DNA of 64,000 nucleotides. Source: a virus. Taxonomy: Duplodnaviria > Heunggongvirae > Uroviricota > Caudoviricetes. Positions within the stretch are counted from its first letter, which is position 1. Each line of letters opens with the position of its first letter. A model generated the notes under the pieces. It was not told the origin of the DNA, ran no database searches, and saw nothing but the letters and a program-made list of their open reading frames with translations. The translations under genes and the position numbers were made by a program. Positions 2,751 through 63,987 of the stretch are shown here, piece after piece. Location: IMG/VR virus record IMGVR_UViG_3300032167_005013; one strand, given 5' to 3'.

Positions 2751-3173
2751 TCATAAGTATAACACTTTTATTTCCAAATTATTCATGTTTTTTAAAAATC
2801 TATCACTTTCTTCAATCGCCAATTTTATTCGTTCAGTTTTTTCATTACATAATAGTAAAATATTATATTGTGTTTGTAAAATATTTTTACATTTCACTGT
2901 CAATTCTTTTACTTTTTGCTCATTAACAAATTCACTAAATACGGATAAAATTATATTTTCAGCAATTTCAATATCAGAGTCGCCATCCTCTTTAGCATAT
3001 TTTTTAACAATATTAATGCCATTCAAAATATATTCTTCACATTCTGATATAATGCTTTCGCATAAAGCAATATTGTCTACAATAAAACGGCCTTCAGAGT
3101 CTGCAATAATTCCATGTTTATTAAACATAAAGGCATGATATCCATGGCATTTCACATAATATTTTTTCTCCAT
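2751..3173 (-). CDS. hypothetical protein
   Basis: 140-aa ORF with the duplicated promoter and 5'UTR block upstream. Confidence 0.5.
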   Translation of the reverse strand: MEKKYYVKCHGYHAFMFNKHGIIADSEGRFIVDNIALCESIISECEEYILNGINIVKKYAKEDGDSDIEIAENIILSVFSEFVNEQKVKELTVKCKNILQTQYNILLLCNEKTERIKLAIEESDRFLKNMNNLEIKVLYL

Positions 3174-15570: not shown

Positions 15571-15610
15571 TATTGAACATTTACTTACTTATTATATACT
15601 TACACACGAA

Positions 15611-15649
15611 AAAACGGGACCTGTCGTGAGACACATCCCGTTTTATTTT
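15611..15649 (+). terminator. rho-independent terminator (aaaacgggacctgtcgtgagacacatcccgtttt + T-run); the same hairpin recurs at 31163-31194
   Basis: 9-bp stem, then ttttatttta. Confidence 0.6.
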
Positions 15650-16460
15650 AAAATCGTCTAATCTTATCCAAATATCCCTCAGATAATTCAATGATATTTG
15701 CTTTGTTAGCAAGAGATTTAATAAGAAGTTGATTATGAAGAACAACAATAATTTGCACTGTTTGTGATGCATCAACCAAAAAATCCCTCAATGCTGCAAG
15801 ATTATCCACATCAAGCCCCTCATCAGGTTCATCCATAATGAAAACCGCTTTCTTTGGGAGTGTATCATCATTAAAACCGTCAATAGCCTCTTTCGTTTTC
15901 TCAACAGCCTTTGTCCACATATCATTCATCGGTTTTTTAGGAAACAAAGAATCTTTGGTATATACCCCCATTTTTTCATTGGCCTCAATGATTGCCATTT
16001 TAAGCGTATTTATCATTCTCTGTCCTTTGCTCATTTTTCCTTCAGAAAAAAACTGTGCAAAATCACGGAAATTTTGAAAATTGTAACCGCCTCTCTTATT
16101 TTTCACACCCGTATCATCCATTCTATGAACAGGAGCATCATAATCATTGACAATTCTGAACATATCCTGCGGCTTATAAGCGGGGTCAAACCCTGATGAA
16201 TCAGGATAAAAAATCTTTACATCATCCCAAAACGTATATTCATTATTGAGGCCACCACGAGCAAGCGTCAACCTTGTTATTATATCAACCAATGTCGTCT
16301 TACCACAACCGTTTTCACCAATAACAAGATTCAACCCCGGTGTAAACTCAATCTTCTTAGGAAGAAGTTTTCTTTTTTTCTCATTTTCATCCTCACTAAG
16401 ATAATAATAGTCATTAACACTATTCTTTGCCTTATAGTTAATTTCAAGTGTTTTAATCAT
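15648..16460 (-). CDS. ABC/SMC-type P-loop ATPase
   Basis: Walker A GENGCGKTT, Walker B FIMDEPDEGLD, VVLHN; start moved to ATG 16458-16460. Confidence 0.55.
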   Translation of the reverse strand: MIKTLEINYKAKNSVNDYYYLSEDENEKKRKLLPKKIEFTPGLNLVIGENGCGKTTLVDIITRLTLARGGLNNEYTFWDDVKIFYPDSSGFDPAYKPQDMFRIVNDYDAPVHRMDDTGVKNKRGGYNFQNFRDFAQFFSEGKMSKGQRMINTLKMAIIEANEKMGVYTKDSLFPKKPMNDMWTKAVEKTKEAIDGFNDDTLPKKAVFIMDEPDEGLDVDNLAALRDFLVDASQTVQIIVVLHNQLLIKSLANKANIIELSEGYLDKIRRF

Positions 16461-25146: not shown

Positions 25147-25224
25147 AAATTTTAAATTATATTTAATTGTTATTTTTGGTAAGGTTAAACCATAATCACT
25201 ATGGTATCATTTACCACCATATAA

Positions 25225-25255
25225 TAATATATGTGCAAATATAGAAATAAGGTTT
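25225..25255 (-). promoter_or_regulatory. CTATATTTGCAC -7 box upstream of the polymerase N-half gene (the 13-mer tgtgcaaatatag also occurs at 8531-8545)
   Basis: TAnnTTTG consensus; seen in sequence. Confidence 0.4.
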
Positions 25256-25268
25256 GAATAAAACAAAA

Positions 25269-29613: not shown

Positions 29614-29830
29614 GGTTATTCCATTGCAGTCAACTACACCCACCTAAAGGAGGGTGCTTGACACTGCCTCGTTAGAGGCATGTCGATTGGGAGGTTGACT
29701 GCTCCCTGCCTGTAAGGATAACCAATTGACCTTCAATTGGTAAAAAACTCGATACAGGGTGGTTGGACCTTTGTCCGATATTAATCGCAGCATTCCAATC
29801 TGAGTCAAAGACAACTCCGTCAACGCAGAT
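29600..29830 (-). ncRNA. candidate omega RNA (right-end RNA) overlapping the tnpB 3' end and extending past the IS right end
   Basis: GC-rich structured segment 29641-29720 (hairpin gacatgcctc-taac-gaggcagtgtc) in an otherwise AT-rich genome; position matches known TnpB omega RNAs; not verified. Confidence 0.3.
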
Positions 29831-30995
29831 ATATCTGCGACCACGGCGCTCTCCATCACGATTATTGGTGCGACAATCCATCTGACTTGTATACATCGGA
29901 GAAACTGTTTCCACCTGCTTGCCCGCAAGTGGTGCCTTGTAAGTCAATATACGTTTAAATTCATAAAATGGAATCTGAGATAAAGCATTGTTATGCTTCG
30001 CTCTCTTGTACCCCTCACTGGTACGTGAAGTTTTCTTTTTAATCTTTGTGAGGTCTTCCATCACAATGATGGAAGCATTTGTACTATTAATGAGTACTTT
30101 ACTTGCACGATAACACATGTCCTTAGAGAGGTTGCGTTCCTTGTTGCGAACTTTCTTAAGGTGGCGCTTTGCTGATTTGGTACCTTTCTCTTGTAGTTTA
30201 CGCTTAAGATAACGGATGTCCCTACGCTTCTTAAGATATGTTGTATCTTTAAATGCCTTACCCTCTGAGGTAACAAATATCATTCTTGCACCGAGGTCAA
30301 CACCTATGCACTCCTCAGAATGTAATGGTTTTTCAGGTACTTCGAAGGGTACTGAAAGGAAGAAATTCCCGTTTCTATAGAATATTGTAGGGTCATATGC
30401 CTTATAAGTACTAAGCATTTCTTTTGCCTTAGGATAGACATTAAAAGGTACGAAAGTACGTTTGTTTTTCTGTGCCCCAGTAATGGTTATTCCTTCAGAT
30501 GTAAGCACTCCGTAGAGGCGTTTATCGAGGGTCATTGTTAATGATTTTCTCTGTGGTACTTCAGCGTTCTTATGTTTGTTTGCTTTAATTGATTTCAAAG
30601 CAGACGCTGCTGCTTGTTCGCACTTGATTACCATCTGTGAAGATAAAGCAGGAAACTCTGTCCTAATTACGTTATAACACGCCTCGTGTACTTTTTTAAG
30701 TGACAGTGTTATTTTGTTATCATGTAGAATACGTGTACACCTATTGTACGCATCTCTTGCACATACAAGAAGATTGTACCAATGCGTTGCATTGGTATCA
30801 TCCATTATTAGAGGTATGTTATAGGTTTGTACAATCATAGCATTCACGTATGTGATTTCTATATATAAATATTATAATAAATTAAAAAGTTTTATTTTTT
30901 TTTAAAAGTTATATATTTACATTAAGAAAATAATGTTTAACCAAAAAGGGTTTAATCGTAGTTCCTCTCCACCCTAAAGGATGGAGTTTCCCTAC
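29620..30995 (-). mobile_element. IS200/IS605-family element carrying only tnpB (IS1341-like), about 1.35 kb
   Basis: TnpB ORF; related subterminal hairpins at the left end (ctccaccctaaaggatggag, 30968-30987) and right end (cacctaaaggagggtg, 29641-29656); 10-bp inverted repeats 29625-29635 / 29693-29702 bracket the right end; boundaries approximate. Confidence 0.5.
29672..30838 (-). CDS. tnpB: TnpB (OrfB), an RNA-guided nuclease of the IS200/IS605 family
   Basis: RuvC-I GVDLGARMIF; C-terminal zinc-ribbon / RuvC-III region RYICVDGVVFDSDWNAAINIGQR (compare the canonical HADxNAAxNI); N-terminal YNIPL...YN; GTG at 30847 or ATG at 30838. Confidence 0.7.
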   Translation of the reverse strand: MIVQTYNIPLIMDDTNATHWYNLLVCARDAYNRCTRILHDNKITLSLKKVHEACYNVIRTEFPALSSQMVIKCEQAAASALKSIKANKHKNAEVPQRKSLTMTLDKRLYGVLTSEGITITGAQKNKRTFVPFNVYPKAKEMLSTYKAYDPTIFYRNGNFFLSVPFEVPEKPLHSEECIGVDLGARMIFVTSEGKAFKDTTYLKKRRDIRYLKRKLQEKGTKSAKRHLKKVRNKERNLSKDMCYRASKVLINSTNASIIVMEDLTKIKKKTSRTSEGYKRAKHNNALSQIPFYEFKRILTYKAPLAGKQVETVSPMYTSQMDCRTNNRDGERRGRRYICVDGVVFDSDWNAAINIGQRSNHPVSSFLPIEGQLVILTGREQSTSQSTCL

Positions 30996-31100
30996 GATAA
31001 ATTTATATGAAAAAATAAGGAATTAACCAAAGTCTCAAACCGATTAATTTCAAATGTGTTTTAGTACGTTCTGTCATAAAATCATAATTTAACATTCTCA

Positions 31101-31159: not shown

Positions 31160-31197
31160 AAAAAACGGGACCTGTCGTGAGACACATCCCGTTTACT
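31160..31197. repeat. second copy of the 36-nt hairpin element aaaaaacgggacctgtcgtgagacacatcccgttt (first copy at 15608-15646)
   Basis: exact repeat; this copy has no downstream T-run on either strand. Confidence 0.7.
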
Positions 31198-31213
31198 TCT
31201 ATTATATCAACAT

Positions 31214-33173: not shown

Positions 33174-33362
33174 TTCTTTTTTTTTTCGCAAAGATAGAAA
33201 CTTTTTAGTAGAAAACAAAAAAACTCCAACGTTTCTTGCGCAGGGAACCGTTGGAGAGAAAAATGATATAGTGTGGTTAGAAACCGATGTGGCGGTTATT
33301 TGACGATAAATATCGTTCAAAATAAAAAAATCGCACTATTTATTATAAAAATTGAATTTATC

Positions 33363-35849: not shown

Positions 35850-36851
35850 TCAAATCAGCAAATCAATTTCATCAAATTTTTTCGCAGATTTAATTGTTTC
35901 AATAATTCCTTTTTTCCCCAAAGCCTCATATACCTCACCGAAATCTTTATATTCATTGAGTTCAATATACTTTATTCTACCTCGTAATCTCCCCACATTA
36001 AGAAGATTATATATTCTCTTCGTTTCTTCTATAGTGGTATCCGAATCAAGACATATTATAATATCAGCATTGGCTTTGGAATACAGTTTTTTATATAATT
36101 CACTATCTTTCAACAAAAATTTACCGAGCATTGAAATAGCATTATTATAATAGATACAATCAAGAGCACCTTCAACCAGAACTATATCGGCATCGAAATT
36201 AATTAAACTTTCTTGGAAGACTATTTCTTTTTTATCAGCATCGCAATTCTTGTATTTCGTTTTCTTTTCGTATCCGGAAAAATCTCGCGACACCCAATAA
36301 TTAAGGAACCCATATTCATCATAAGACGGAATTACAATCCTGTTTCTCATTGTCCATGTCTCACCATCCCATTGTGTATAGCCTATATTGAAACGGTCAA
36401 CGATATCCTGCGTTATTTGGCGTTTTTCGAGGTAATTTTTAAGTTTTTTACTCTTAAGTGATGAAATATCTATCTTGGTATAAGTTTCTGGCAATTTAAG
36501 TGTTTTTCCATTCTTATCTGTATTGCCATATATCTCATCCATATACGACGACAAGTCGTACATTTTACTCTCTCTAATGGATTTTATTTCTTCCTCATAT
36601 ATCTTGAATTTTTCTTTACCACCATATCGTCGTATTAAATACGAAAGGTTCCCCTTCCCGTCACAAGCCCAACAATGATACTTGCCAATGGCAAATGAAA
36701 CCTCAAGATTATATTTCCCATCGGGCCCACCTTTTTCCTCAGCACAATCCATTATGCAATTGAACTGATACTGTGAACACCCTTTCATGTATCCACCCTG
36801 CTTTGATTCACCTAAAATTGAAACTAAAATATTATAAATCTTCTGAAACAT
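35850..36851 (-). CDS. DnaG-like DNA primase (zinc finger plus TOPRIM)
   Basis: CWACDGKGNLSYL zinc-binding motif; TOPRIM-like VLVEGALD ... IIICLDSD; start moved to the Met after the intergenic hairpin and -7 box. Confidence 0.55.
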   Translation of the reverse strand: MFQKIYNILVSILGESKQGGYMKGCSQYQFNCIMDCAEEKGGPDGKYNLEVSFAIGKYHCWACDGKGNLSYLIRRYGGKEKFKIYEEEIKSIRESKMYDLSSYMDEIYGNTDKNGKTLKLPETYTKIDISSLKSKKLKNYLEKRQITQDIVDRFNIGYTQWDGETWTMRNRIVIPSYDEYGFLNYWVSRDFSGYEKKTKYKNCDADKKEIVFQESLINFDADIVLVEGALDCIYYNNAISMLGKFLLKDSELYKKLYSKANADIIICLDSDTTIEETKRIYNLLNVGRLRGRIKYIELNEYKDFGEVYEALGKKGIIETIKSAKKFDEIDLLI

Positions 36852-36951
36852 TTGATAAAAAATTTTTCGCAAATATAGTGATAAAATATTAAAAAAACAA
36901 AAGGAAGACCGAAGTCCTCCTTTATATTCACTTATTTTATATACTCTGCCA

Positions 36952-37461
36952 TCAATATGTGCCGCAATCAACTTCATCATAGGTCCTGATTTGGCCATTC
37001 ACAATCAGATATGATTTATAATCTCTGTTTTTAACTCTGACTGACATGCCATCTTCAAAACGTTTTGTTTTTGTTGTCTGAGAATATCCTGTATCGTCCC
37101 TCTCTACCCCAATCTCAACAATATAATATGTTGCGGAGGTTATTCCGTTGGCATCTTCACCAACGAGGTAACGGTCACCCGGATTCAACATGCTGGGTAA
37201 TGCGGACACAATATCAATAACAGGTAAAAGTTGCCCAGTTGGTTCTGTTATAAGATTATCACCGAAATACTCTCTCCAAGTGATAACTCCCGTTTCCGAA
37301 TCAACCGACTTTACTGAATATCGGGTCCAATAATCCAACATATTAGCCTTAGCCAATAAATTATACCCTTCCTCAGTACCTCTCCAAAATTTTACCATGT
37401 TTTTGTTTTCTGCCATTTTGCCCAAAAACTTACTCGTTTTTATTAATGGCCATCCCCCCAT
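36952..37461 (-). CDS. hypothetical protein, possibly structural or fibre-associated (start may instead be ATG 37413)
   Basis: 169-aa ORF whose ATG lies inside the C10/G6 hairpin. Confidence 0.35.
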   Translation of the reverse strand: MGGWPLIKTSKFLGKMAENKNMVKFWRGTEEGYNLLAKANMLDYWTRYSVKSVDSETGVITWREYFGDNLITEPTGQLLPVIDIVSALPSMLNPGDRYLVGEDANGITSATYYIVEIGVERDDTGYSQTTKTKRFEDGMSVRVKNRDYKSYLIVNGQIRTYDEVDCGTY

Positions 37462-37475
37462 AGAACTATCCTAAT

Positions 37476-37485
37476 GGGGGGGGGG
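37476..37485. repeat. G10 homopolymer tract (pairs with the C6 run at 37454-37459 to form a hairpin over the start codon of 36952..37461)
   Basis: gggggggggg in an otherwise AT-rich genome. Confidence 0.8.
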
Positions 37486-37502
37486 TAGCCATTTATTAAT
37501 TA

Positions 37503-39551
37503 TTAATTCAGAACCTCTGCATCGTCGCCGTCATAGTACATGAAACCATAAAGGCCTTCACTACCTTTGACAAGTTCGATGTGTCCTGCAGCGACTGTCT
37601 CATCAGTTGCTGTTTCAACCTTAACCGAAACCTTAGGGTTGTTAGGGTCAGCGTTGTTTACTTCAATAGCATTGTCTGCGGAAGTAACTGAATTCACACC
37701 ACCCGCAACAGCAGCGCGAATGCTATCCTGAATACCCTGAAGGACTGTTGAAATCTTGGTATCTCCTGAATAAATCGCATCACCTGTTGCGCCAGTAATA
37801 TCACTACCGAGAGCAATATCCTTAGCAGCAATTTCGAGTTCAGCAACCTTACCCTCAGAAACTACAGCATCAATACCATTAACCTTAACAGCCTCAATTA
37901 CGTTAACCTGAGCGCCCTCAGCAATGTTATTAAGTTTCTCCTCATAAGAAGCCTCAAATTCATTGAAACCGTCTTTGGTTACGAAAGTATCGTCGCCATA
38001 CTTCTTAGCATCAGCAAGAACCTGAGCGTCAGCAGCAGCCCACTTCTTATCAATCTCAACCTCACGCTCATCGGTATAAGCCTTAGCGTCAGCAAGAGCC
38101 TGAGCAGCTGCGCCTGCAACCTCGTAGTTTCCTGCAAGGCCATCAGCATATTCTTTAGCAGCCCTAAGAACCTCATTATCAAGTTCAGTTATCTTATCAA
38201 GGAATGCTTGTGAAACTGCAATACCATTAGTTGTTACCTGAAGATAAGTGTTTGCAGTCTCATCAACCTTTACCTTGAACGTTTTACCATCAAGAACAAG
38301 GCCATCACCCGCAGCATAGTAATCAAGAAGGTCTGTTACATCCATGCGGATATCTTCTTTACCTGCAGCAGTATTGAAGGTCAATACGAGATATTTCTCA
38401 CCGGCCTCACCTTCTTTAGGTCCATCAAGAACAGCACCTTCAAGCATACCATCCTTAATGAAAGCAGTTGCATCAATTGATGAAACAACCTCACCATTAA
38501 TTCCCTGGAGACGAAGCACTGCATTCTGTTCATCTGAAGCCGGAACATAAGCAAGAGTAAGAGTTGTTTTCAATTTATCTCCATCAAGGGAAATAACTTT
38601 TTCACCATCAGCAACTCCCTGAACCGGAGCAGTTGGAACAATAACATCAACTGATTTATCAGCCTCTGCTATCACAAGAGCCTGTCCGTTAACTTTAACG
38701 ACCTCAAGTTTGTTAACCTGAGCACCTGCCTCGATATTACCAAGTTTAGTACCCTCATCATTAGTCATAAGACGAGAACCCTCAACCTTATCGACTTTCT
38801 TACCAAGTTCACCCTCTATTTCAGATTTAAGAGCAGCATCAGCACCTATATAAGCATCATGGTCAATTGCTTCAAGAACCTTAACGCGCCCATCCATAGC
38901 CTCGTCCTTACCATCGGCATAGTCTTTAGCGTCAGTAAGAGCCTGAGCAGCCTGTTCATCAGCATAAGTCTTTGCTGCATCCTCAGCATCGGCAATTTCT
39001 TTGTAAAGTCCTGTAGCAGCATCCTCGCCTGCAGCCGCTTTTCCTATTTCAGATTCAATACCTGAAACCTTAGTCTTAAGTTCAGCAACGTCAGCGTCAA
39101 GATTACCACTTGCAGTAGAAGCTGCGAGTTTCTGAAGTTGTCCCTGACCGATTACAATATAAGGAGCAGCGTCATATTCAACAGCAGCACCTTCACCTTC
39201 TCCGTCAGCATCATACTCAGATTTAGTCTTAACATAGATAACCTGACCAATATTATCATCAGTTGCAAGAGCAACTGCATCCTTATATTCTTCAACAGCA
39301 AGTGAACCATTTCCTGAACCTACGGCAACCCAAGCGTCTTCTGAAGTCGAATTAGCCGCATCTTTAAGCATGTATACCTGTCCATCTTCAACAACAGCAA
39401 CAAGCATACCGTTATATTTCGCCAAACCAAATGTATCATCAGCAAGCAAGTCAGCAAATGACTGTACTACTGTTCTATCATCAAGTGGCTGTGCACCGGT
39501 AGGTTTAATTGCCGATGCGAAGTTTATCATACCATTAAATAATTTTGCCAT
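37503..39551 (-). CDS. tail fibre protein, Ala/Asp-rich coiled coil, with an N-terminal domain shared with 41646..42578 and a GSGNGSLAVEEYKDAV domain shared with 54739..56685
   Basis: repeats of ADAKAYTDE / LADAKKYGDD type; shared domains noted in the findings. Confidence 0.6.
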   Translation of the reverse strand: MAKLFNGMINFASAIKPTGAQPLDDRTVVQSFADLLADDTFGLAKYNGMLVAVVEDGQVYMLKDAANSTSEDAWVAVGSGNGSLAVEEYKDAVALATDDNIGQVIYVKTKSEYDADGEGEGAAVEYDAAPYIVIGQGQLQKLAASTASGNLDADVAELKTKVSGIESEIGKAAAGEDAATGLYKEIADAEDAAKTYADEQAAQALTDAKDYADGKDEAMDGRVKVLEAIDHDAYIGADAALKSEIEGELGKKVDKVEGSRLMTNDEGTKLGNIEAGAQVNKLEVVKVNGQALVIAEADKSVDVIVPTAPVQGVADGEKVISLDGDKLKTTLTLAYVPASDEQNAVLRLQGINGEVVSSIDATAFIKDGMLEGAVLDGPKEGEAGEKYLVLTFNTAAGKEDIRMDVTDLLDYYAAGDGLVLDGKTFKVKVDETANTYLQVTTNGIAVSQAFLDKITELDNEVLRAAKEYADGLAGNYEVAGAAAQALADAKAYTDEREVEIDKKWAAADAQVLADAKKYGDDTFVTKDGFNEFEASYEEKLNNIAEGAQVNVIEAVKVNGIDAVVSEGKVAELEIAAKDIALGSDITGATGDAIYSGDTKISTVLQGIQDSIRAAVAGGVNSVTSADNAIEVNNADPNNPKVSVKVETATDETVAAGHIELVKGSEGLYGFMYYDGDDAEVLN

Positions 39552-39580: not shown

Positions 39581-41527
39581 TTAAGCCACTGTGAATTTAA
39601 CACGGTTAGGTCCTTCAGTTGAAGCCCACTCATAAACTGTATAAGTCACCTCTTTACCCTGAATAGTTCTTGTAACAGTACCGTTTGCGACGAACTTATC
39701 TTTACAATCAATAGCATATTTCGCTGTAGTTGGATTGATTGCCATTGCAGTTGTTACCTTCCAAGCACCAGGGAGGAAAAGACGGTATGGTTCAAGGCCC
39801 TGATTAGCAAATGAAACCGCAAATGAAGTATTTGATTTCATAAGAGCCAATTTAGTACCATCACCTGTTACTGGAGCAGCGAGGTCTGCCATAGCCGCAC
39901 CAGTTGCATCTGTAGTAGAAGCACTAACGCCATTGGTATATACAGGATAAACACCTGTTACAGTGAATGTTGCAGACTGATTAGAAGGGTCTTTTTCAAC
40001 ACCTGCCTGAGCAGCAATTGCAACTGATTTCTTCTCCTCACTTCTTCCACCAAGGTTTGAAACGATATAATAAGAAGCAACTCCATCATGTGAACCTGTA
40101 TGCTTAGGCGCATCCTCAGTTACTACATACTTATTAGTTCCTTCAACAGCAACAAGAGTACATGAAGCAAGCTTACATAAAGAAGCGGTAGCGTCTTGAA
40201 CTGTTGTTGGGAGTGTTCCTGTGAAACCGGTAGAAGCCGCTGAAAGTTCATAAACGTTGTTATTCATCTGTGAAACTGTCCAAGCACCTGAAACTGAAGT
40301 TGCGTCTACAACATCATCACCATCAACAGTAGCAGAATAACCATGCTCAAATCCACTTACTTTAGGCTCAGTCTTAGAAATTGAAACTGCATTTGCTGTA
40401 ACCTCACTGAATGTAATTGCCTGTCCAACTTCTACAAGCCCATTATTGTTTCCACCTGTTGCACTAACAGTTGGTGCTGAAATTGAAACACTATAACTTG
40501 GAGTATTCTTTGAAGGTACCGGATAGATTTCAACACAAAGAAGAGCCTTAAGAACTGCCTGAAGGTCAGTACCTGCAGGGATGACACCATCAGCAAAAGC
40601 AGATTTAACTGCATCAGAAGCAAGAGGGCCACCCTCAATTGTAATAGATTCCTTAAGAACTGTCTTATCAACTGTCATATCGTCAACAACAAGTTCATTG
40701 GATTCGTTAACTGAAAGGAAGTTGTTAGCCTCAGCAACCTTAACATTGAAAGTCACACCATCCTCAGCGAGTTCGAGTGCGGTACCTGCATTGTAAAGTT
40801 TCGCAAAATCAGAAACCTTAATCTCATCAGTCTTAGTTGACTCACCCTCAGTCTTCCAAGTGAAAATGATATATTTCTCACCATCTTCTTTAGTTTCAAC
40901 TTTAACATCCTCAAGAACGCTGTCTTTCAGGAAATCAGTTGCATCAAATCCTGCAATTTCCTCGCCACCAATTCCCGTAAGAGAGATTTTATTGTTCTCA
41001 TATTTAAGACCAATTGTTGATGAAAGAATACCGTCAGCAACATTAAGAACTTTGTCGCCTTCAGCAACATTCTTCACCATAATTTCAGTAAGTGAATCTT
41101 GAAGGTCCTTAATATCACCTTCAACTTCGTCGAAACGAGCAGTAACCTTAGCGAAAGCAGCAGCAAGATTTGCAAAATCCTCATCCATTACAGTGATTTT
41201 GCCTTCACCATCAAGACTAACATTTACAATACCTACCACCTTAAGAAGGGCTGCAGCTACATCAGCGCTCTCGTCATCAAGAGTGGCAATTTTATCAGCA
41301 AGAGATTCAATCTGTCCTTCCTGATAACGAGCATAGTGCTTTGTACCGAAATAAATGTCATAAATGTCGTTTCTTAAATCATTGTCATCCTGTACGCCCT
41401 CAGTGTTGGCATCAGAATCAACAACTGTTCTAACGAACCAAATATAACCTTTTCTATCAGCTGCAGCAACCTCTGCGAAAGTCGTACCAAGTACGGACTT
41501 AATACCTTTAAAAAGTTGTTTTGACAT
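39581..41527 (-). CDS. tail fibre protein
   Basis: 648 aa, low-complexity beta-rich, adjacent to other fibre genes. Confidence 0.5.
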   Translation of the reverse strand: MSKQLFKGIKSVLGTTFAEVAAADRKGYIWFVRTVVDSDANTEGVQDDNDLRNDIYDIYFGTKHYARYQEGQIESLADKIATLDDESADVAAALLKVVGIVNVSLDGEGKITVMDEDFANLAAAFAKVTARFDEVEGDIKDLQDSLTEIMVKNVAEGDKVLNVADGILSSTIGLKYENNKISLTGIGGEEIAGFDATDFLKDSVLEDVKVETKEDGEKYIIFTWKTEGESTKTDEIKVSDFAKLYNAGTALELAEDGVTFNVKVAEANNFLSVNESNELVVDDMTVDKTVLKESITIEGGPLASDAVKSAFADGVIPAGTDLQAVLKALLCVEIYPVPSKNTPSYSVSISAPTVSATGGNNNGLVEVGQAITFSEVTANAVSISKTEPKVSGFEHGYSATVDGDDVVDATSVSGAWTVSQMNNNVYELSAASTGFTGTLPTTVQDATASLCKLASCTLVAVEGTNKYVVTEDAPKHTGSHDGVASYYIVSNLGGRSEEKKSVAIAAQAGVEKDPSNQSATFTVTGVYPVYTNGVSASTTDATGAAMADLAAPVTGDGTKLALMKSNTSFAVSFANQGLEPYRLFLPGAWKVTTAMAINPTTAKYAIDCKDKFVANGTVTRTIQGKEVTYTVYEWASTEGPNRVKFTVA

Positions 41528-54738: not shown

Positions 54739-56685
54739 TTAAAGTGCTATCATTTTAGTCCACTTAGCGAAATTGTGTTGAATTTCAAGCAAATAATTTG
54801 TATTAGTTTCCAAATCAGCAATCGGAATATTTGATAAAATTATATCTGCAGGAAGGGATATTGTTCCAAATGTATCACTTGTCTTGAACAGAACTGAATA
54901 ACGATAAGCAACCTCGCCCTCAGTTTCCTCATAAGTTAATGTTAAATTGGATACCGGTTCCTCAATAACATGCAATGTATTTGGTTTAATTGTAAGAGTA
55001 CCCTCCACCGGAACTGTTGTGTCTATAGCCCAATTCACCTGTGAATTAATATCATTAAGGGATGCTGTCATTGCAATAACAGTTGCCCCAAGAGTATTCT
55101 CAATTTTCCTCACAGCAGTATTGACGTTATCCCCCATTACAATTGAATCCATTGTATAAGATGCTTCTTCAAGAGTTTCATCAAGAACAATATCCTTGCC
55201 TTCAAGAACAACGCCATTTTCTTGGGAAATTGTATAACCATTTACGGTATATGCATCAATAGCCTCAGTCTTTTCATTGAAAGCTTTTCCCTGTTCCTCA
55301 ATTTTATCAGCAAGAACCTTAAGTTCATCCTGAGTACCGTCAGCAGATACTATATATGAAAGTTTTCCTTCACCTTCAACAAGATAAAATCCCTCAAGGT
55401 AAACAACCTCATTATACTCCGAATCCTTCTTGGTCTTAAAAATTTGTCCTACATTGTTTGCGGTGGCACGTTGAACTGCAGTGGCATAATTCTCAACTTC
55501 CTGAGGTTTTAAATTATTCATATTCAATTTCAACGAGGAAGTTTCGCCACTTATTGCCGAAATACTATCCGTATTACCTGATACTGTTTCTGAAAGACTT
55601 GCCAATTCCTCACTATATCCTGATACAACCATTGAAAGGTTCGCCAATTCTTCTGTATTACCTGATACTGTTTCTGAAAGACTTGCCAATTCTTCTGTGT
55701 GGCCACTAATTGTATCAGTAATTACCGATAAAATATTTTCAATCTCAGATATGCGTGTTTTAAACGTTTCAGCAATAACAAGACTACCATTTTCATCAAA
55801 TGCAAGAATAGTTTCATTTTCACCTAACCTAATTCCAATAATTTGGTTTTCTAAAGAAATGCCATCCCCCGAAGAGTATTGTTCAGTAAACATCTCTGAA
55901 ACGTCAACCATAATATCCTCTTTTTGGGCGGCTTCAGTAAATGTCAACACAAGGTATTTTACCCCATCAACCTCATCAATATAAACATTTTCAACTCTTC
56001 CATCAGCAACGCCTTCAATGTTATCAACAGAAACAGTAAATGCAACAGTCTTATCAGTAACCGGAAGTTCCTCACCATTTACAATGATTTTTTCAATAAC
56101 GTTAGCCTGAGCATTGGTTTCAATGCCCTGAAGTTTTGTGATATCTGAATCTGAAACAAGTGAGTAACCACTTTTAATATCAACTTTTTTATCAAGTTCA
56201 GAATTTAATTCCCCAACGCTTATTTTCAACCCTGCAATCTCAGTATCCACATCAGCATCACCGGAAGCAAGTGACATTGAAAGTTTCATGAGTTCACCTT
56301 CACCTATAACAATATAAGGCCCTGTGTAATATGTTTGATTGTCATATACACTATCGTTCTTAACGAATATAATTTGTCCAAGATTTTCGGCAGATGCTTC
56401 AATAACTGCGTCTTTATATTCCTCTACTGCAAGTGAACCGTTTCCGGATATTTTTACAACATCCCCCAATGTATTTTTAATGTATATGCTTGGGTCATTC
56501 GCATTATTGTTAATAACAAGAATACCTTTATTGAGTTCCAATTGTTCTGTTTTAAGAACATCATATAGAGGATGGTCAGGCTGAACGTCTATGAAAAATT
56601 TTGCAAGTTCATTATTAATTTCAGTCTGAGTTGTTCCCGTAACACGGTTTACATGGCCGTGCACAATGTTTCTATTATTTGCCAT
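54739..56685 (-). CDS. tail fibre protein with two copies of the GSLAVEEYKDAV-type domain and in-frame 28-aa tandem repeats
   Basis: shares a domain with 37503..39551; internal repeats VSGNTEELANLS... appear three times. Confidence 0.6.
   Translation of the reverse strand: MANNRNIVHGHVNRVTGTTQTEINNELAKFFIDVQPDHPLYDVLKTEQLELNKGILVINNNANDPSIYIKNTLGDVVKISGNGSLAVEEYKDAVIEASAENLGQIIFVKNDSVYDNQTYYTGPYIVIGEGELMKLSMSLASGDADVDTEIAGLKISVGELNSELDKKVDIKSGYSLVSDSDITKLQGIETNAQANVIEKIIVNGEELPVTDKTVAFTVSVDNIEGVADGRVENVYIDEVDGVKYLVLTFTEAAQKEDIMVDVSEMFTEQYSSGDGISLENQIIGIRLGENETILAFDENGSLVIAETFKTRISEIENILSVITDTISGHTEELASLSETVSGNTEELANLSMVVSGYSEELASLSETVSGNTDSISAISGETSSLKLNMNNLKPQEVENYATAVQRATANNVGQIFKTKKDSEYNEVVYLEGFYLVEGEGKLSYIVSADGTQDELKVLADKIEEQGKAFNEKTEAIDAYTVNGYTISQENGVVLEGKDIVLDETLEEASYTMDSIVMGDNVNTAVRKIENTLGATVIAMTASLNDINSQVNWAIDTTVPVEGTLTIKPNTLHVIEEPVSNLTLTYEETEGEVAYRYSVLFKTSDTFGTISLPADIILSNIPIADLETNTNYLLEIQHNFAKWTKMIAL
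55528..55720 (-). repeat. about three 84-nt in-frame tandem repeats inside the fibre gene (an exact 38-nt core at 55571-55608 and 55655-55692)
   Basis: seen in sequence. Confidence 0.7.
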
Positions 56686-59052: not shown

Positions 59053-62000
59053 TTAAAAAACAATCTTTTTACCAAAAATATAATATTTCATGGTAGCCCC
59101 TCTATCATAAGCATTTCCATCAAAACACCATGCTGTTTCAGTTCCCTGAGTTTCAGAAGTCCAACATCCGGTAAAATCAATATCCGTATTTTCGGCAACA
59201 ACAAGCATTTCCTCATATGAAGGGATATAACCTTTTATTGTCTTATCGCCGAAATTATTGTTTACTGCAATTGCAAACATTTCATTCTCAGGGTCAGCAG
59301 CGAGAACTGCATTAGTATTTTTAAAGCCATTTGCTGACGACATCATGACATCATCAACATCAGTTCCTTCAATTGCAATCCCCTTAGAACCCCATGGCAT
59401 TGCCCCGCTTACAGTATCGATGTAATAATCAGTATCGGAAAGTTTCACACAAATGACACTACCCACTGTTTCAACACCTATTTCAGTTTCATAGACAATT
59501 TCAAAATCGCCTTCAAATGATGCAGGAATTGTATCAATAACAGTATTAAACTTTTTACCGCCCTCAGTTACGAAACCATTAGCCTTTACATTGAAATTAT
59601 TCATTGGGAGCGTAAAATACATGGTTTCGCCCGAATATATTCGACGGTATTCATGCCCCTTGTTATCAACAAGTTCAATAACAGTTCCATATGGAATATC
59701 TTGGTCACATACCAATGTTATTGCAATAGGTCGCACATAATTTGTGGTATCATTAGAAAGTAACATTGCCGACATCATAGGGTCACTATATATCTTATTA
59801 CCAATTGTGTTAACAACCAAACCATCAATACCTGTACCAATAGAGTTTTCGCCCCTATATTTAAATATAATTGAATCATCGTTTAATGCAATGTTCAATT
59901 TTTTATTGAAACCATTGTCTCTCTTGAAATTCATAATTTCATCACCATTACCATTGGTTATGACCGCCCAACGATAATCAGACTGTGACCACTGTCCCAT
60001 TTCCACGTTAACCGATGATGTATCTGAAAGCATTGAAAGGTCGAACTCCATAGAAGTATGTACTGGAGAACTAGAAGTTCCACCTTCAAGTTTACCATTT
60101 CTAATACCCTCAAAACGTTTATCATAGAACCATCCGTTAGTTGCCATCAGAGCCTTAACCGAGTCATCATAAACACCTTTAGTGAAGTTATATCCCTCAC
60201 CCGAGAAAAGCATTGAATTATCGCCAAGATAAATCGTAGTGTATTGACCCTCAACAATACCAACCACTTCTCCGTTCAAAGTAATATTCAAATCAGTAAT
60301 GATATCGTCAGTTGTATACTTATGGTAATCACTTTCCTGAGTAGTTTCAAGACCGCCAACCATAATTATATTGTTTTCATCTGCCGAAAGAATTGCGCCA
60401 TCCTTAATAATGCGTACGTATCCTTCACTGAAAAGATGGGATATTCTAACGAGTGGTGAGAGAAGATTAATCTCTTTACCATTATCATTCGAAACAAAAC
60501 CTGTCGAGAATGCTTCATAAGCCTCCGGTTTAACTATAATTTCATCCAACGTCACATTGAAGAAATCTCCATTTACTGTAGTAGGTGGGGTTAAACCATT
60601 GAACTTTAATGTTTTTAACTGATTTGACAACCAGAAAGAATTTCCTCCAATTGACTCCAATGTTGAAGGGAATGTAATGGTTTTCAAATTACTTACGGAA
60701 TAGAAAGTCGAACTTCCAATTGTTTTTATTCCTTCAGGTATAATACAATTAATAGGATAACCATTTTGATAGAAACACTTATCAGGTATTAACGTTTCAT
60801 TGCTTGCAAAGGCATAGTTATTCCCATAATTTGTGTTGGTGAATAAATTTGTTGATTTATTATTTGTTAAACAATTCAACTTTATGCTTTGTCCTTCTGA
60901 CCCTTCAAATATGTACTGTCCATTAAGGATAACATTTTCAGGTATAACAACATTGGCTTCTCTTCTATATTGCATTGAATAGCCACACGCATATACAGGA
61001 ACTGTGTTAATGATATTGGCTGACGCTGTATCTTTACCCAAACGGATAAGAGTTATTGAATCATCATTCACCTCATAGAGGGCACCATCATAAACCTGAC
61101 ATTTACTTGCCTTTGAAACTCCGTCATACTCTGAACCAAGGAAATTGATGTTACGACATCCCTGGAATGGGTTATTATCAACACCATAAACAATTTCGAG
61201 AGTATCAATTGATGGAACCGCAAAGTCAGTCAATAATTCGCAACCCCTGAAAGCATGCTTTCCAATATATTCACAGTTATTACCAAGTTCAAATTTCTTC
61301 AACTGAGTACAACCTTCACAAAGTTGGGCTCCTATATATTTAAATGACAGCGGTTTATAAGTAGGGTTCTTTTCCTCATCATACCCACTCTGTGCTCCAT
61401 AAATACTTTCGAGGGCTGTACAACCTGAGAACATCTTTGCATTTGCATAGAAGAAACTTGGTGGGAATGCCACTTCTCTCATTCCACTACACCCTGCAAA
61501 GAAACCTTCAGGAATAAGTACCTGATTTACATTACCCTCCTGTGGCATTTGTCCGATAAGAGAACTTGTAAAATATTGGAATTCAAGGAATGATGTAATT
61601 TCAGGGTGATTAGCAAAGATAGAAGTCTTCTTACCGCTATAATCCGTTTTAAGGAGTTGTTCAATGGTAACATTAGCAGCCTCCATCTTATTAAGTTTAC
61701 CATAACCAGTCTCATCTTCCACAATAATTCCCGCATCAACAAGAATGTTATAAACAGGGGCGTTCATTGCTTCAGTGATAATTGTATTAGGGTCCTTAAA
61801 CCCAATTTCTTTAGTGTTGACACAAAGTTCTAAACCATCATAATCCCTTGTTACTGTACACTGAACCATAACGACGCCATCAAAACCCGCAGGGGCCTGA
61901 ATGTATGCCATCTCCTTATCAGTGTCAGTAAGAGAAACCTTATTTGCATATCCACTTGAACCGCCTATAATCTCCCATTTTACAGAGAATATACCACGGC

Positions 62001-63987
62001 CTTCGAGTTCTTCATCATTAACTGATGAAGGGATGAAATCAATCCAAAGTTTATTCTTATCGTCATCATCATACAAATCCTTTAATGACATAATTGACAG
62101 TTCTGAAGGGTAGATACGTTTCTTAATTGGGATAGAAAGTTGGAGTGGTATTTCATTTTTCTCATCCTCATATTCTATTGAAAGATTCAAATATGTATAA
62201 TTGTTGTTGCTCTCCAATACTTTAATGGTGAAATAATCCCTCTTAAGATTATCAGTATTCATTGTAATAATACCTTCAGTAGCCTCAATAATTTTGTTTA
62301 CTGAAGTACCATCCTCCTCAATTTCGTTGACTGTTGCATAAACAGATATCTCACCACCAAGTTGTGTACCTACTGTTGTTACGTCAATACGGATATCGCC
62401 ATCACCTTCATAAATGTACGGAACCTCTGTCGCATAAACACCTGTATATGCCTTAATATACACTGCAGAACCTTCCTTGAAACAATCTACTCCAAAAATC
62501 GACTTAAGTTGCGCAATGTCATTGAAGGTAAGGTCTGACTTAATCTCAATATTACCACGAACGTTCAATGATGATAACTGCGACTTACCAATTCCCGCCA
62601 AAGAGAACAGTTTGTTATAGTTGGTTCTATCGAATACCCAATTGATACCCTGCAGATTAAGATTAACTTTGTTAAGTTCATTCCTATTGCTCTTAACAGC
62701 AACCCAATTCAATACAAAGTTGAAATCATTCATAAGGTTCCTACAATTGTCAATTGTAAGGTTATTCAATCTCGCAAATGTCGGGTCTTCTGATACAATA
62801 CCATCATAATAAATCATTGATGACCTAGTCAATGAAAGTGTTTCAGTTGTTGACGGTAGTTCTACATATTGCACAAGGCAACCATCCGCAAATGTAAAAT
62901 TGGCAATCGAAGTACCTTTTGCAAATACGTTGCGGATATTAAGAAGTTTGTTAAGTCCATCAAGTTTATCAATATTCCTGATGTTAGTTACGTCAAGAAC
63001 CTCAAGTTTCTCAGCAACATCAAGTCCACTGAATTTCATTGCAGTACCGTTGTTCACTAAATCAGTTCGTGTATGGTCACCAACAAGAATTTCTTTCATT
63101 TTGGTACCGACTGAAGGAGAATAGCAACCGGTAACGTCAATTTCAGTCAACGCACCAACGCAGCCACGAAGGTCAAATGTAGAAATATTCGCAGCACCCA
63201 TTAGTTCAAGATATGAACCGATATTGAATGCTGACGCAGTTCTGAAAGTATGATTTGTACCTGCAATAAGTGCAGTAGGAGTCATCTCCGTAATAACATT
63301 ATCATGGCCCCATGCATAATAAACAGGTTCACCTGATTTAATGGTAAACTCAGAGCCTGCAGGGAGGTTTGTTGAACGGAACTTAATAAGTGATGCCCTA
63401 AAGTTAGCATTAGCAAAACGACTGTCAAACACGTTGAAACGGCGTCCAAGCCACCATTTTCTATGAGCCGAACGAGAACCCTGCACGTCATAGAGATAAT
63501 CCTCATAAACGTGAGTTGCGGTGCCCTCTTTATCGACCTTCTGTGTCCATCCCTCTACATAAGTCTTAATATATTTAGTTTCAGCATCTTTATTATAAAT
63601 GCGCTCACACCACATATCAGATTGATTTGTGTCATATTCTCTCAATGCATTTGCGTATGAAAGGCTATAAAGAGGGTTTGAAGTTGAATCAGTAAGTTTG
63701 TTGTCAACCTCAGTCACATGTTCCATGAACTCAACATCAGCCTCAAGGTTGTTCCAAAGTGTAGACTCACGGCCCGCATATACATAACCAGTACCATCCT
63801 TAGTCTCACGAGTAATGTAAGGGTCGAAAACAAGACGACCATCATTCTTCACACCGAGAATTGTATCGTTGTCATAGTTGATGAAAAACCAAAGAGAAGG
63901 CAATGTTGAATTAGGGTCACTTGTATTAGGTCCTTCAGTTGTCAACATACTATTCTTCACGGTTTGGTCAACACCACCAAAACGCAT
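59053..63987 (-). CDS. giant virion or tail protein (more than 1644 aa, N-terminus beyond the window) with BspA-type leucine-rich repeats
   Basis: repeats such as FAGCSGMREVAFPPSFFYANAKMFSGCTALESI, EGCTQLKKFELGNNCEYIGKHAFRGCELL and LKTITFPSTLESIGGNSFWLSNQLKTLKF follow the LRR_5 (BspA) pattern. Confidence 0.55.
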   Translation of the reverse strand: MRFGGVDQTVKNSMLTTEGPNTSDPNSTLPSLWFFINYDNDTILGVKNDGRLVFDPYITRETKDGTGYVYAGRESTLWNNLEADVEFMEHVTEVDNKLTDSTSNPLYSLSYANALREYDTNQSDMWCERIYNKDAETKYIKTYVEGWTQKVDKEGTATHVYEDYLYDVQGSRSAHRKWWLGRRFNVFDSRFANANFRASLIKFRSTNLPAGSEFTIKSGEPVYYAWGHDNVITEMTPTALIAGTNHTFRTASAFNIGSYLELMGAANISTFDLRGCVGALTEIDVTGCYSPSVGTKMKEILVGDHTRTDLVNNGTAMKFSGLDVAEKLEVLDVTNIRNIDKLDGLNKLLNIRNVFAKGTSIANFTFADGCLVQYVELPSTTETLSLTRSSMIYYDGIVSEDPTFARLNNLTIDNCRNLMNDFNFVLNWVAVKSNRNELNKVNLNLQGINWVFDRTNYNKLFSLAGIGKSQLSSLNVRGNIEIKSDLTFNDIAQLKSIFGVDCFKEGSAVYIKAYTGVYATEVPYIYEGDGDIRIDVTTVGTQLGGEISVYATVNEIEEDGTSVNKIIEATEGIITMNTDNLKRDYFTIKVLESNNNYTYLNLSIEYEDEKNEIPLQLSIPIKKRIYPSELSIMSLKDLYDDDDKNKLWIDFIPSSVNDEELEGRGIFSVKWEIIGGSSGYANKVSLTDTDKEMAYIQAPAGFDGVVMVQCTVTRDYDGLELCVNTKEIGFKDPNTIITEAMNAPVYNILVDAGIIVEDETGYGKLNKMEAANVTIEQLLKTDYSGKKTSIFANHPEITSFLEFQYFTSSLIGQMPQEGNVNQVLIPEGFFAGCSGMREVAFPPSFFYANAKMFSGCTALESIYGAQSGYDEEKNPTYKPLSFKYIGAQLCEGCTQLKKFELGNNCEYIGKHAFRGCELLTDFAVPSIDTLEIVYGVDNNPFQGCRNINFLGSEYDGVSKASKCQVYDGALYEVNDDSITLIRLGKDTASANIINTVPVYACGYSMQYRREANVVIPENVILNGQYIFEGSEGQSIKLNCLTNNKSTNLFTNTNYGNNYAFASNETLIPDKCFYQNGYPINCIIPEGIKTIGSSTFYSVSNLKTITFPSTLESIGGNSFWLSNQLKTLKFNGLTPPTTVNGDFFNVTLDEIIVKPEAYEAFSTGFVSNDNGKEINLLSPLVRISHLFSEGYVRIIKDGAILSADENNIIMVGGLETTQESDYHKYTTDDIITDLNITLNGEVVGIVEGQYTTIYLGDNSMLFSGEGYNFTKGVYDDSVKALMATNGWFYDKRFEGIRNGKLEGGTSSSPVHTSMEFDLSMLSDTSSVNVEMGQWSQSDYRWAVITNGNGDEIMNFKRDNGFNKKLNIALNDDSIIFKYRGENSIGTGIDGLVVNTIGNKIYSDPMMSAMLLSNDTTNYVRPIAITLVCDQDIPYGTVIELVDNKGHEYRRIYSGETMYFTLPMNNFNVKANGFVTEGGKKFNTVIDTIPASFEGDFEIVYETEIGVETVGSVICVKLSDTDYYIDTVSGAMPWGSKGIAIEGTDVDDVMMSSANGFKNTNAVLAADPENEMFAIAVNNNFGDKTIKGYIPSYEEMLVVAENTDIDFTGCWTSETQGTETAWCFDGNAYDRGATMKYYIFGKKIVF

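Follow-up and report, generated by a model that had tools for sequence, protein, structure and literature searches.

A poly-C tract forms one arm of a conserved intercistronic stem-loop downstream of a phage fibre-like gene

The only long homopolymer of G or C in a 64,000-nucleotide stretch of a Caudoviricetes genome (IMG/VR record IMGVR_UViG_3300032167_005013; hereafter the window) is a run of ten Gs at positions 37476 to 37485, read as C10 on the coding strand of the two genes that flank it. We report that this striking run is real and that it belongs to a stem-loop lying wholly in the spacer that separates a small conserved gene from a fibre-like gene, where it is not part of a start-codon switch. 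The anatomy of the stem-loop, its position, its conservation, the covariation that preserves its pairing and the true start of the gene that follows it are documented below. On balance, the data lean modestly towards a conserved intercistronic RNA stem-loop, with the C run as one of its arms, that would act on mRNA stability, processing or attenuation.

Results

The tract in the window and in independent assemblies

Both neighbouring genes are carried by the minus strand, so that their mRNA reads C10 followed by G6, the latter corresponding to six Cs at 37454..37459 of the plus strand. The window has a G+C content of 35.1% (G 15.4%, C 19.6%, from base counts), and runs of at least ten Gs or Cs are expected by chance about 0.006 times in 64 kb, as calculated from the base frequencies. 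An earlier note on this DNA had stated that runs of G or C are otherwise absent; this is borne out, since the longest other runs in the window are of five Gs and six Cs. With ten nucleotides, the homopolymer belongs to the class that is capable of slippage (about 7-8 nt or more).

The tract was recovered in 10 further contigs originating from different samples and pipelines (JGI, ENA/MEGAHIT, and Logan), as C10 in nine contigs and as C11 in one. Over 3.8-6.5 kb, tract included, the nine C10 contigs match the window at 100% identity. The C11 copy was present in a contig of 2.8 kb (L010), which additionally harbored one SNP at window position 36778. The consensus length was C10 in 10 of the 11 copies and C11 in 1 of 11, for contigs that were otherwise 99.9-100% identical. 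Poly-G is a recognised class of sequencing artefact, arising for example from two-colour chemistry, and the earlier note had named such homopolymers as common sites of sequencing or assembly error. The break of two contigs (L023 and L030) at the hairpin would fit such an origin. However, the identical tract was located in the middle of ten other JGI, ENA and Logan contigs, assembled independently, away from their ends, and homologous C10 or C11 tracts were present at the equivalent site of two diverged phages from other samples. An artefactual origin is therefore effectively refuted.

The 3' arm of the hairpin is precisely where contigs L023 and L030 start. These ends were considered as a sign of length heterogeneity, but L030 is of the type with C3 and a perfect palindrome, and an assembly break induced by the palindrome is the simpler explanation. 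At this site, de Bruijn assemblies seem to stop at the palindrome, and variants of the element could be hidden as a result.

Searches by megablast and tblastn against 50,697 annotated phage records returned no relatives, and scans of IMG/VR with peptide and DNA patterns returned no copy. The exact pattern ATGGCTAC10 was found in 41 stretches of 596 Gb of genomes, for about 70 estimated by chance, and in 2 stretches of IMG/VR; the hairpin context was present in none of them. An unrelated repeat, ...GCGG(C/T/G)GG(T/C)AATGGCTA-C12-17-GCTCTGATTATCAATAA, was observed in at least nine copies in the Holosporales MAG Gsp477_bin113 (L038, L045, L047, L051, L059, L061, L063, L065, and L067), with a poly-C length that differed in each copy.

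Flanking genes and the start of the small gene

The gene located upstream from the tract encodes a fibre-like protein of 682 residues (37503..39551, minus strand). Its C-terminus, ending ...LYGFMYYDGDDAEVLN, is conserved in all relatives, and a second TAA comes in frame after its TAA stop codon (37503-37505). The gene has no Pfam, PHROG or PDB sequence match, as is the case for the entire paralogous and internally repetitive family formed by the fibre-like genes at 37503-39551, 54739-56685 and 39581-41527 (all on the minus strand), which share repeated segments (for example 39227-39317 versus 56358-56448, 75%; 37876-37937 versus 38686-38747, 74%). Elsewhere in the window, a protein of 1644 residues (59053-63987, minus strand) contains BspA-type leucine-rich repeats (Pfam LRR_5, 3e-31) and may be a host-interaction protein.

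The gene located downstream from the tract is the last one before a terminator. Mechanical ORF calling makes it a 169-codon ORF opening at the first ATG, 37459..37461 (minus strand), which lies 14 nt past the C run and is buried in the stem, with a predicted unpaired probability below 0.1. The search for relatives of its product yielded 174 homologues. All 120 listed homologues have 144-156 residues and align from Met16 of the 169-residue ORF (residues 16-169), and one of them (P0001, 154 residues) is 100% identical to the product of the small gene. Most rows of an alignment of 30 sequences open at the equivalent of Met16, typically with MA(E/N)..., and the 15-residue extension MGGWPLIKTSKFLGK was present in none of the 120 listed homologues. 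In addition, reading of the L026 sequence revealed an in-frame stop codon seven codons upstream from the start of the small gene. The alignment of the listed homologues from Met16 and the upstream stop codon of L026 indicate that the small gene starts at ATG 37414-37416 (MAENKN...). The gene model is accordingly corrected to 154 residues from 37416 (36952..37416, minus strand), instead of 169 residues from 37461. Since the listed homologues align from Met16, the hairpin is fully intergenic. The earlier note had proposed that the hairpin buries the start of the gene: the hairpin exists and ATG 37461 is indeed paired, but this ATG is not the start codon of the gene. No usable Pfam or PHROG match was found for the small gene, and a Foldseek search with the AF2 model of its product (pLDDT 71.6) returned no match in PDB or BFVD.

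A canonical intrinsic terminator, AAAGGAGGACUUCGGUCUUCCUUU followed by UGUUUUUUU, is located at 36900..36923 (minus strand), directly after the small gene; this leaves no room for the coupled downstream genes on which the earlier note had envisaged an effect of the tract. Beyond the terminator lies a promoter-type motif of the TAnnTTTG type, CTATATTTGCG (36868..36878, minus strand), ahead of the primase gene. In nearly all lineages checked, a CTATATTTGC-type motif likewise lies between the terminator and the primase gene. On the minus strand of the window, CTATATTTGCG recurs upstream of several genes, with repeats at 25221-25268, 33182-33221 and 36855-36902. The primase ORF of 382 residues (35850-36998, minus strand) overlaps the end of the small gene, and gene callers give 333 or 375 residues on identical contigs; the true start of the primase gene probably lies past the terminator and promoter (36868-36923).

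TAnnTTTG is the -7 promoter consensus of Bacteroidota, as established for Bacteroides promoters. Shine-Dalgarno-like sequences were detected upstream of only 6 of 50 long ORFs. Judging from the scarcity of such leaders and the -7-type motif, the host is probably a member of the Bacteroidota. Contigs bearing homologues reach 269-380 kb, indicating that the phage is a jumbo phage.

Predicted fold of the stem-loop

The complete element spans 49 nt (37445..37493, minus strand), as defined by RNAfold, by an inverted repeat and by homologous elements in L022, L026-29, L031 and L033. In the order of the RNA, it comprises an outer 5' arm (AAUGGCUA), the C10 run, AUUAGGAUAGUUCUAU, the G6 run, a bulged A and an outer 3' arm (UGGCCAUU). 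The two outer arms form a stem of 8 bp, positions 37486-37493 pairing with 37445-37452. Six Cs of the run pair with G6 in the inner stem and the other four are unpaired, forming a C-rich internal loop on the 5' side. The inner stem comprises 12 bp with a one-nucleotide bulge (C6AU/AUG6, a bulged U, then AGGA/UUCU) and is closed by the loop UAG. At the level of DNA, the element is an imperfect inverted repeat with arms of 21 nt that are 81% complementary. The pairing of C10 with G6 in a hairpin, as the earlier note had read it, is thus supported by both the inverted repeat and the fold. The element is located entirely within the 86-nt spacer separating the fibre-like gene from the small gene and ends 28 nt before the real start codon.

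Folding of the minus-strand RNA gave -26.1 kcal/mol; the z score was -2.7 over 67 nt and -1.9 over 86 nt. Among the 60-nt segments of the window, on either strand, the stem-loop ranked second for stability. The most stable 60-nt fold (29631-29690) overlaps the 5' end of a TnpB/Cas12f-like gene, on the strand of that gene (29672-30847, minus strand; Pfam Cas12f1-like_TNB 3e-15, OrfB_IS605), and two others among the most stable folds are located within this gene or a short way upstream from it (29801-29860 and 30951-31010). A 42-nt hairpin, AAAAAACGGGACCTGTCGTGAGACACATCCCGTTT, is present in two copies that are 93% identical, one at 31160-31201, about 300 nt upstream of the TnpB/Cas12f-like gene, and the other 15.5 kb away at 15609-15650. 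The structures associated with this gene could be transposon ends, a guide RNA or terminators.

The stem-loop upstream of the small gene is present as a single copy in the 64-kb window and as one copy per related locus. Comparison with Rfam gave a best match of 19 bits, for gathering thresholds of 53-86. No U-tract is present 3' of the stem-loop, the next bases being AAUAAAAAC / AAUAAAAACGAG, and the hairpin was not reported by a terminator scan. The two strands yield folds of about the same stability; comparison of G-U pairs is not decisive for strand assignment, three lineages favouring the sense fold and two the antisense fold.

The impact of tract length was modelled with ViennaRNA by combining C3-C13 with G3-G10. 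The architecture was unchanged in every structure inspected, and the energies were -37.9, -36.4 and -35.8 kcal/mol for C9, C10 and C11, respectively. The unpaired probability of the real start codon was 0.51 for every combination of C3-C13 and G4-G10 tried. The fold is insensitive to the length of the tract because any six of the ten Cs can serve as partners of the six Gs. One-base changes in the tract are therefore predicted to be nearly silent, in contrast to the earlier proposal that they could alter hairpin stability.

Consequences of tract length for the small gene

The earlier note had further envisaged that length changes switch translation between the Met codon in the hairpin and the internal Met codon. 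There is no basis for such a switch, since the extension is absent from the 120 listed homologues and the tract is located upstream of both ATGs and therefore cannot change their relative frame. The three frames that follow the tract all close before the small gene, at UAG 37466-37468, UAG 37471-37473 and UAA 37443-37445. Slippage can therefore neither extend, fuse nor truncate the small gene, which rules out an N-terminal extension or fusion. No promoter-like site spanning the tract was found (no -35/-10 pair and, by reading of the sequence, no Bacteroidota -33/-7 pair), which rules out a promoter-spacer tract. A translational operator sequestering the start codon was rejected as well, since the hairpin ends 28 nt short of the real ATG at 37416, whose predicted accessibility is the same whichever variant is modelled. 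Pairing of GCCAUU in the 3' arm with AAUGGC at the real start, acting as a coupling switch, is not favoured since a compensatory change in L033 tracks the 5' arm and not the start region. Being in neither an ORF nor a promoter spacer, the tract does not qualify as a classical contingency locus. The C run is plausibly prone to slippage and C10 and C11 variants exist, but a phase-variation switch is not supported.

Two other classes of element were rejected: a Rho-independent terminator, for want of a U-tract at the hairpin; and a DGR target, as 37503-37700 has no direct repeat elsewhere in the window and the C-terminus of the fibre-like protein is conserved rather than hypervariable. A miniature mobile palindromic element is disfavoured, as a single copy was found in the 64 kb covered here of a genome of roughly 270 kb, and related loci likewise have one each.

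An AUG (37490..37492, minus strand) lies within the outer 5' arm, 10 nt after the stop codon of the fibre-like gene; it is preceded by an A/U-rich leader and opens a putative tiny ORF. Its product would be MATPPPLG* at C10, MATPPPIRIVLWGDGH* at C11 and MATPPH* at C9. The M-A-T sequence is kept in all five lineages through third-position changes (GCU/GCC, ACC/ACA); the length of the ORF and the position of its stop codon relative to the real start vary.

Homologous elements in related lineages

A homologous element was found at the equivalent site in four other lineages, whose small protein is 69-76% identical to that of the window. The L033 element reads AGAUGGCUA-C10-AUGAG-GUAGCA-CUCAU-G4-A-UGGCCAUCU (also given as C10-AUGAG/CUCAU-G4-AUGGCCAUCU; z = -4.5). 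The L022 element, AAUGGCUA-C11-AUAGGG-AAAU-CUCUAU-G4-A-UAUCCAUU, combines C11 with G4 and folds weakly (z = -1.1). The L026-29 element, AAUGGC-CA-CCCAUAGGGAU-A-AUCCCUAUGGG-CA-GCCAUU, has C3 and G3 and a perfect palindromic core (z = -6.1). The L031 element, AAUGGCU-ACAC-UCCCAUAGGGGAU-U-AUCCCCUAUGGGA-AGCUAUU, also has C3 and G3, with an ACAC bulge on the 5' side (z = -5.7). The comparison of the tract across relatives that the earlier note had called for, with uniformity as the outcome speaking against a role of its length, thus revealed variation: C10 and C11 in near-identical contigs, and C10, C11, C3 and C3 in the other lineages.

Pairing is preserved by compensatory changes. In L033, an A-U pair of the outer stem is replaced by G-C and AUAGG/CCUAU of the inner stem by AUGAG/CUCAU; in L031, a paired G/C insertion keeps the pairing. 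An internal loop of 4-7 nt on the 5' side, made of extra Cs or of ACAC, is present in four of the five versions, and the 5' arm AUGGCYA varies less than the 3' arm. The locus thus displays the features of an intercistronic structural RNA: a stable stem-loop between co-oriented genes, with a structure conserved with covariation (L033 and L031).

A C run of 10-11 nt is kept in three diverged lineages (the window, L022, and L033), in which the element is 78-82% identical, versus 57-70% for the flanking spacers and 66-77% for the coding flanks. These poly-C lineages are not monophyletic on the tree of the small protein. In L031, ACACUCCC resembles a C run interrupted by substitutions, which suggests, from sequence comparison, that the long run is ancestral and decaying in some lineages. 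In a tight cluster with 86-100% identical flanks and 96-98% identical fibre C-termini, the element is of the C11/G4 type in L022, C3/G3 in L026 and C3 plus ACAC in L031, and is absent from L018; within this cluster the element itself is only 69-80% identical. Carriers of the element share a fibre tail ending ...DD(A/S)EV(L/V)x. In L018-L021 (~2950-3000), the fibre gene ends early (...YYDGDDS*) owing to a GAG-to-TAG change. The spacer of L018, which is devoid of the hairpin, is about 49 nt shorter than that of relatives with 96-97% identical fibre C-termini, and this absence looks like a recent loss of the element.

More broadly, a strong hairpin is present in the spacer between the fibre and small genes in 13 of 18 lineages and none in the remaining 5. 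In eight lineages these strong hairpins are unrelated in sequence to the element (z from -2.9 to -7.3; for example AUAAGCACCUCU...AGGGGUGCUUAU and AAUCUACCUCUAUA...UAUAGAGGUAGAUU). None of the eight has a U-tract, and an A- or A/U-rich stretch comes directly after most of them. The occurrence of hairpins in 13 of 18 lineages, eight of them unrelated in sequence and none with a U-tract, points to a function depending on structure and position rather than on sequence. A canonical terminator, comprising a hairpin and a U-tract, follows the small gene in 13 of 13 lineages checked; the spacer hairpin is thus a different class of element.

Discussion

Explanations of the C run

The reading that we favour, albeit by a modest inclination, is that of an intercistronic stem-loop acting at the level of RNA. 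On the polycistronic transcript, the stem-loop would be a barrier to 3' exonucleases, a processing site or a partial attenuator, and would set the ratio of fibre mRNA to mRNA of the downstream gene. The real start codon would not be occluded, and the C run would slip, with one-base changes that would be nearly silent. Several observations stand against this reading or escape it. The equal stability of the sense and antisense folds leaves room for a role at the level of DNA, five of the 18 lineages manage without a hairpin, and the L022 version folds weakly. The model explains neither the persistence of C10-11 in three diverged lineages nor the lower variability of AUGGCYA in the 5' arm.

A site acting as DNA is an unlikely alternative. 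The palindrome would be bound or cleaved by a dimeric protein, or would be a mobile or recombination-prone insertion travelling with the 3' end of the fibre gene. This would account for the presence/absence polymorphism (L018 lacks the element of about 49 nt, with a fibre C-terminus 96-97% identical to that of carriers), the patchy distribution on the small-gene tree, the fibre tail common to carriers, the equally good folds of both strands and the rapid change of the element (69-80% identity) amid flanks that are 86-100% identical. However, only one copy is present in the 64-kb window and at each related locus, no clear target-site duplication is seen, and the arms are asymmetric (C10-11 versus G4-6) and include G-U pairs that would be mismatched in a DNA palindrome; a structural RNA role better accounts for the unrelated hairpins that other lineages carry at this position. 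A neutral origin has a similarly small share of the probability: the hairpin would be nearly devoid of function, with a CCC arm expanded by replication slippage. The five of 18 lineages lacking any hairpin, the C3, C11 or missing elements of close relatives and the predicted silence of length changes agree with it, whereas the poly-C form is better conserved than the coding flanks in three lineages, the pairing is maintained by compensatory changes and long G or C runs are otherwise avoided in this genome.

We also regard as unlikely a contingency locus, in which a selected hypermutable C run would modulate the expression of the small gene by its length, possibly because the shifted stop codon of the tiny ORF starting at AUG 37492 (MATPPP...) alters the unwinding of the hairpin by ribosomes. 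The difference between C10 and C11 among otherwise near-identical contigs could be read in this way, as could the retention of C10, C11 and C10 across three lineages despite flanks of only 57-77% identity. Interruption by substitutions is the usual route of decay of hypermutable tracts, and ACACUCCC of L031 has that appearance. The A/U-rich leader of AUG 37492 resembles those of real genes of this phage, which mostly lack a Shine-Dalgarno sequence, and hypermutable homopolymers have been documented in phages (PMC12633550; Sorensen et al., 2021, cited in PMC10579305). Yet the consensus is C10 in 10 of 11 copies, the lone C11, from a 2.8-kb contig that also has a SNP, may be a strain variant or an error, and the tract lies outside genes and recognisable promoter spacers. 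All frames close before the small gene, neither the length of the tiny ORF nor the position of its stop relative to the real start is conserved across lineages, and changing the length of the tract affects neither the predicted structure nor the predicted accessibility of the start. A more specific version, in which the run encodes a conserved poly-proline leader and the length of the leader ORF makes the locus variable, appears highly improbable. Ribosomes leaving the fibre gene would re-initiate 10 nt further on at AUG 37492, inside the outer stem, translate M-A-T-P-P-P and stall on the proline run, holding the hairpin open. Slippage to C9, C10 or C11 would place the stop at codon 7, at codon 9 in the loop or at codon 17 past the hairpin, and the position of the stop would change the extent of unwinding and thereby the output of the last gene. 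Known phase variation in Bacteroidota relies on invertases; were this version true, the site would be a leader-length contingency locus in a Bacteroidota jumbo phage.

Comparison with known systems

By analogy, the element is most like the intercistronic stem-loops that tune expression within operons, such as the REP-type stabilisers of E. coli malEFG, the puf hairpins of Rhodobacter and the RNase III sites of phage T7 with their internal loop. Like these, it is a stable stem-loop in a polycistronic unit, directly follows an abundant structural gene and lacks a U-tract; its lower and upper stems are separated by an internal loop, and its structure is retained while its sequence drifts. Unlike these examples, it is a single copy rather than a member of a dispersed repeat family, and one of its arms is a homopolymer of 10-11 nt.

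The tract shares with rho-independent terminators a G+C-rich stem-loop downstream of a stop codon, but there is no U-tract and the true terminator is found one gene further on (13 of 13 lineages checked). Phase-variable tracts in promoter spacers are exemplified by the poly-G/C of Neisseria porA and opc and the poly-C of Bordetella fim. The tract resembles them as an intergenic poly-C/G upstream of a gene, but no -35/-10 pair is present and C3 relatives keep the hairpin, indicating that the tract belongs to a stem rather than acting as a spacer.

Among phages, poly-G tracts have been reported in receptor-binding genes of Campylobacter phages, by the account given in PMC10579305 (Sorensen et al., 2021, as cited therein), and homopolymer repeats in T2 and T4, only few of which are intergenic (PMC12633550). 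The documented contingency loci that these two sources describe act mainly by frameshift inside ORFs. The likeness lies in a G/C homopolymer of about 10 nt beside genes of the host-recognition type, with some variation in length between genomes; the tract described here differs in being intergenic, in being unable to fuse or break the frame of the small gene and in being mostly uniform at the consensus level.

The probable host group, the Bacteroidota, is one in which signals for translation initiation and mRNA processing are poorly known, and to our knowledge intercistronic elements of this kind have not been characterised there. If the hairpin sets the ratio of the fibre-like protein to the downstream protein, it would represent a small case of post-transcriptional tuning in uncultured jumbo phages.
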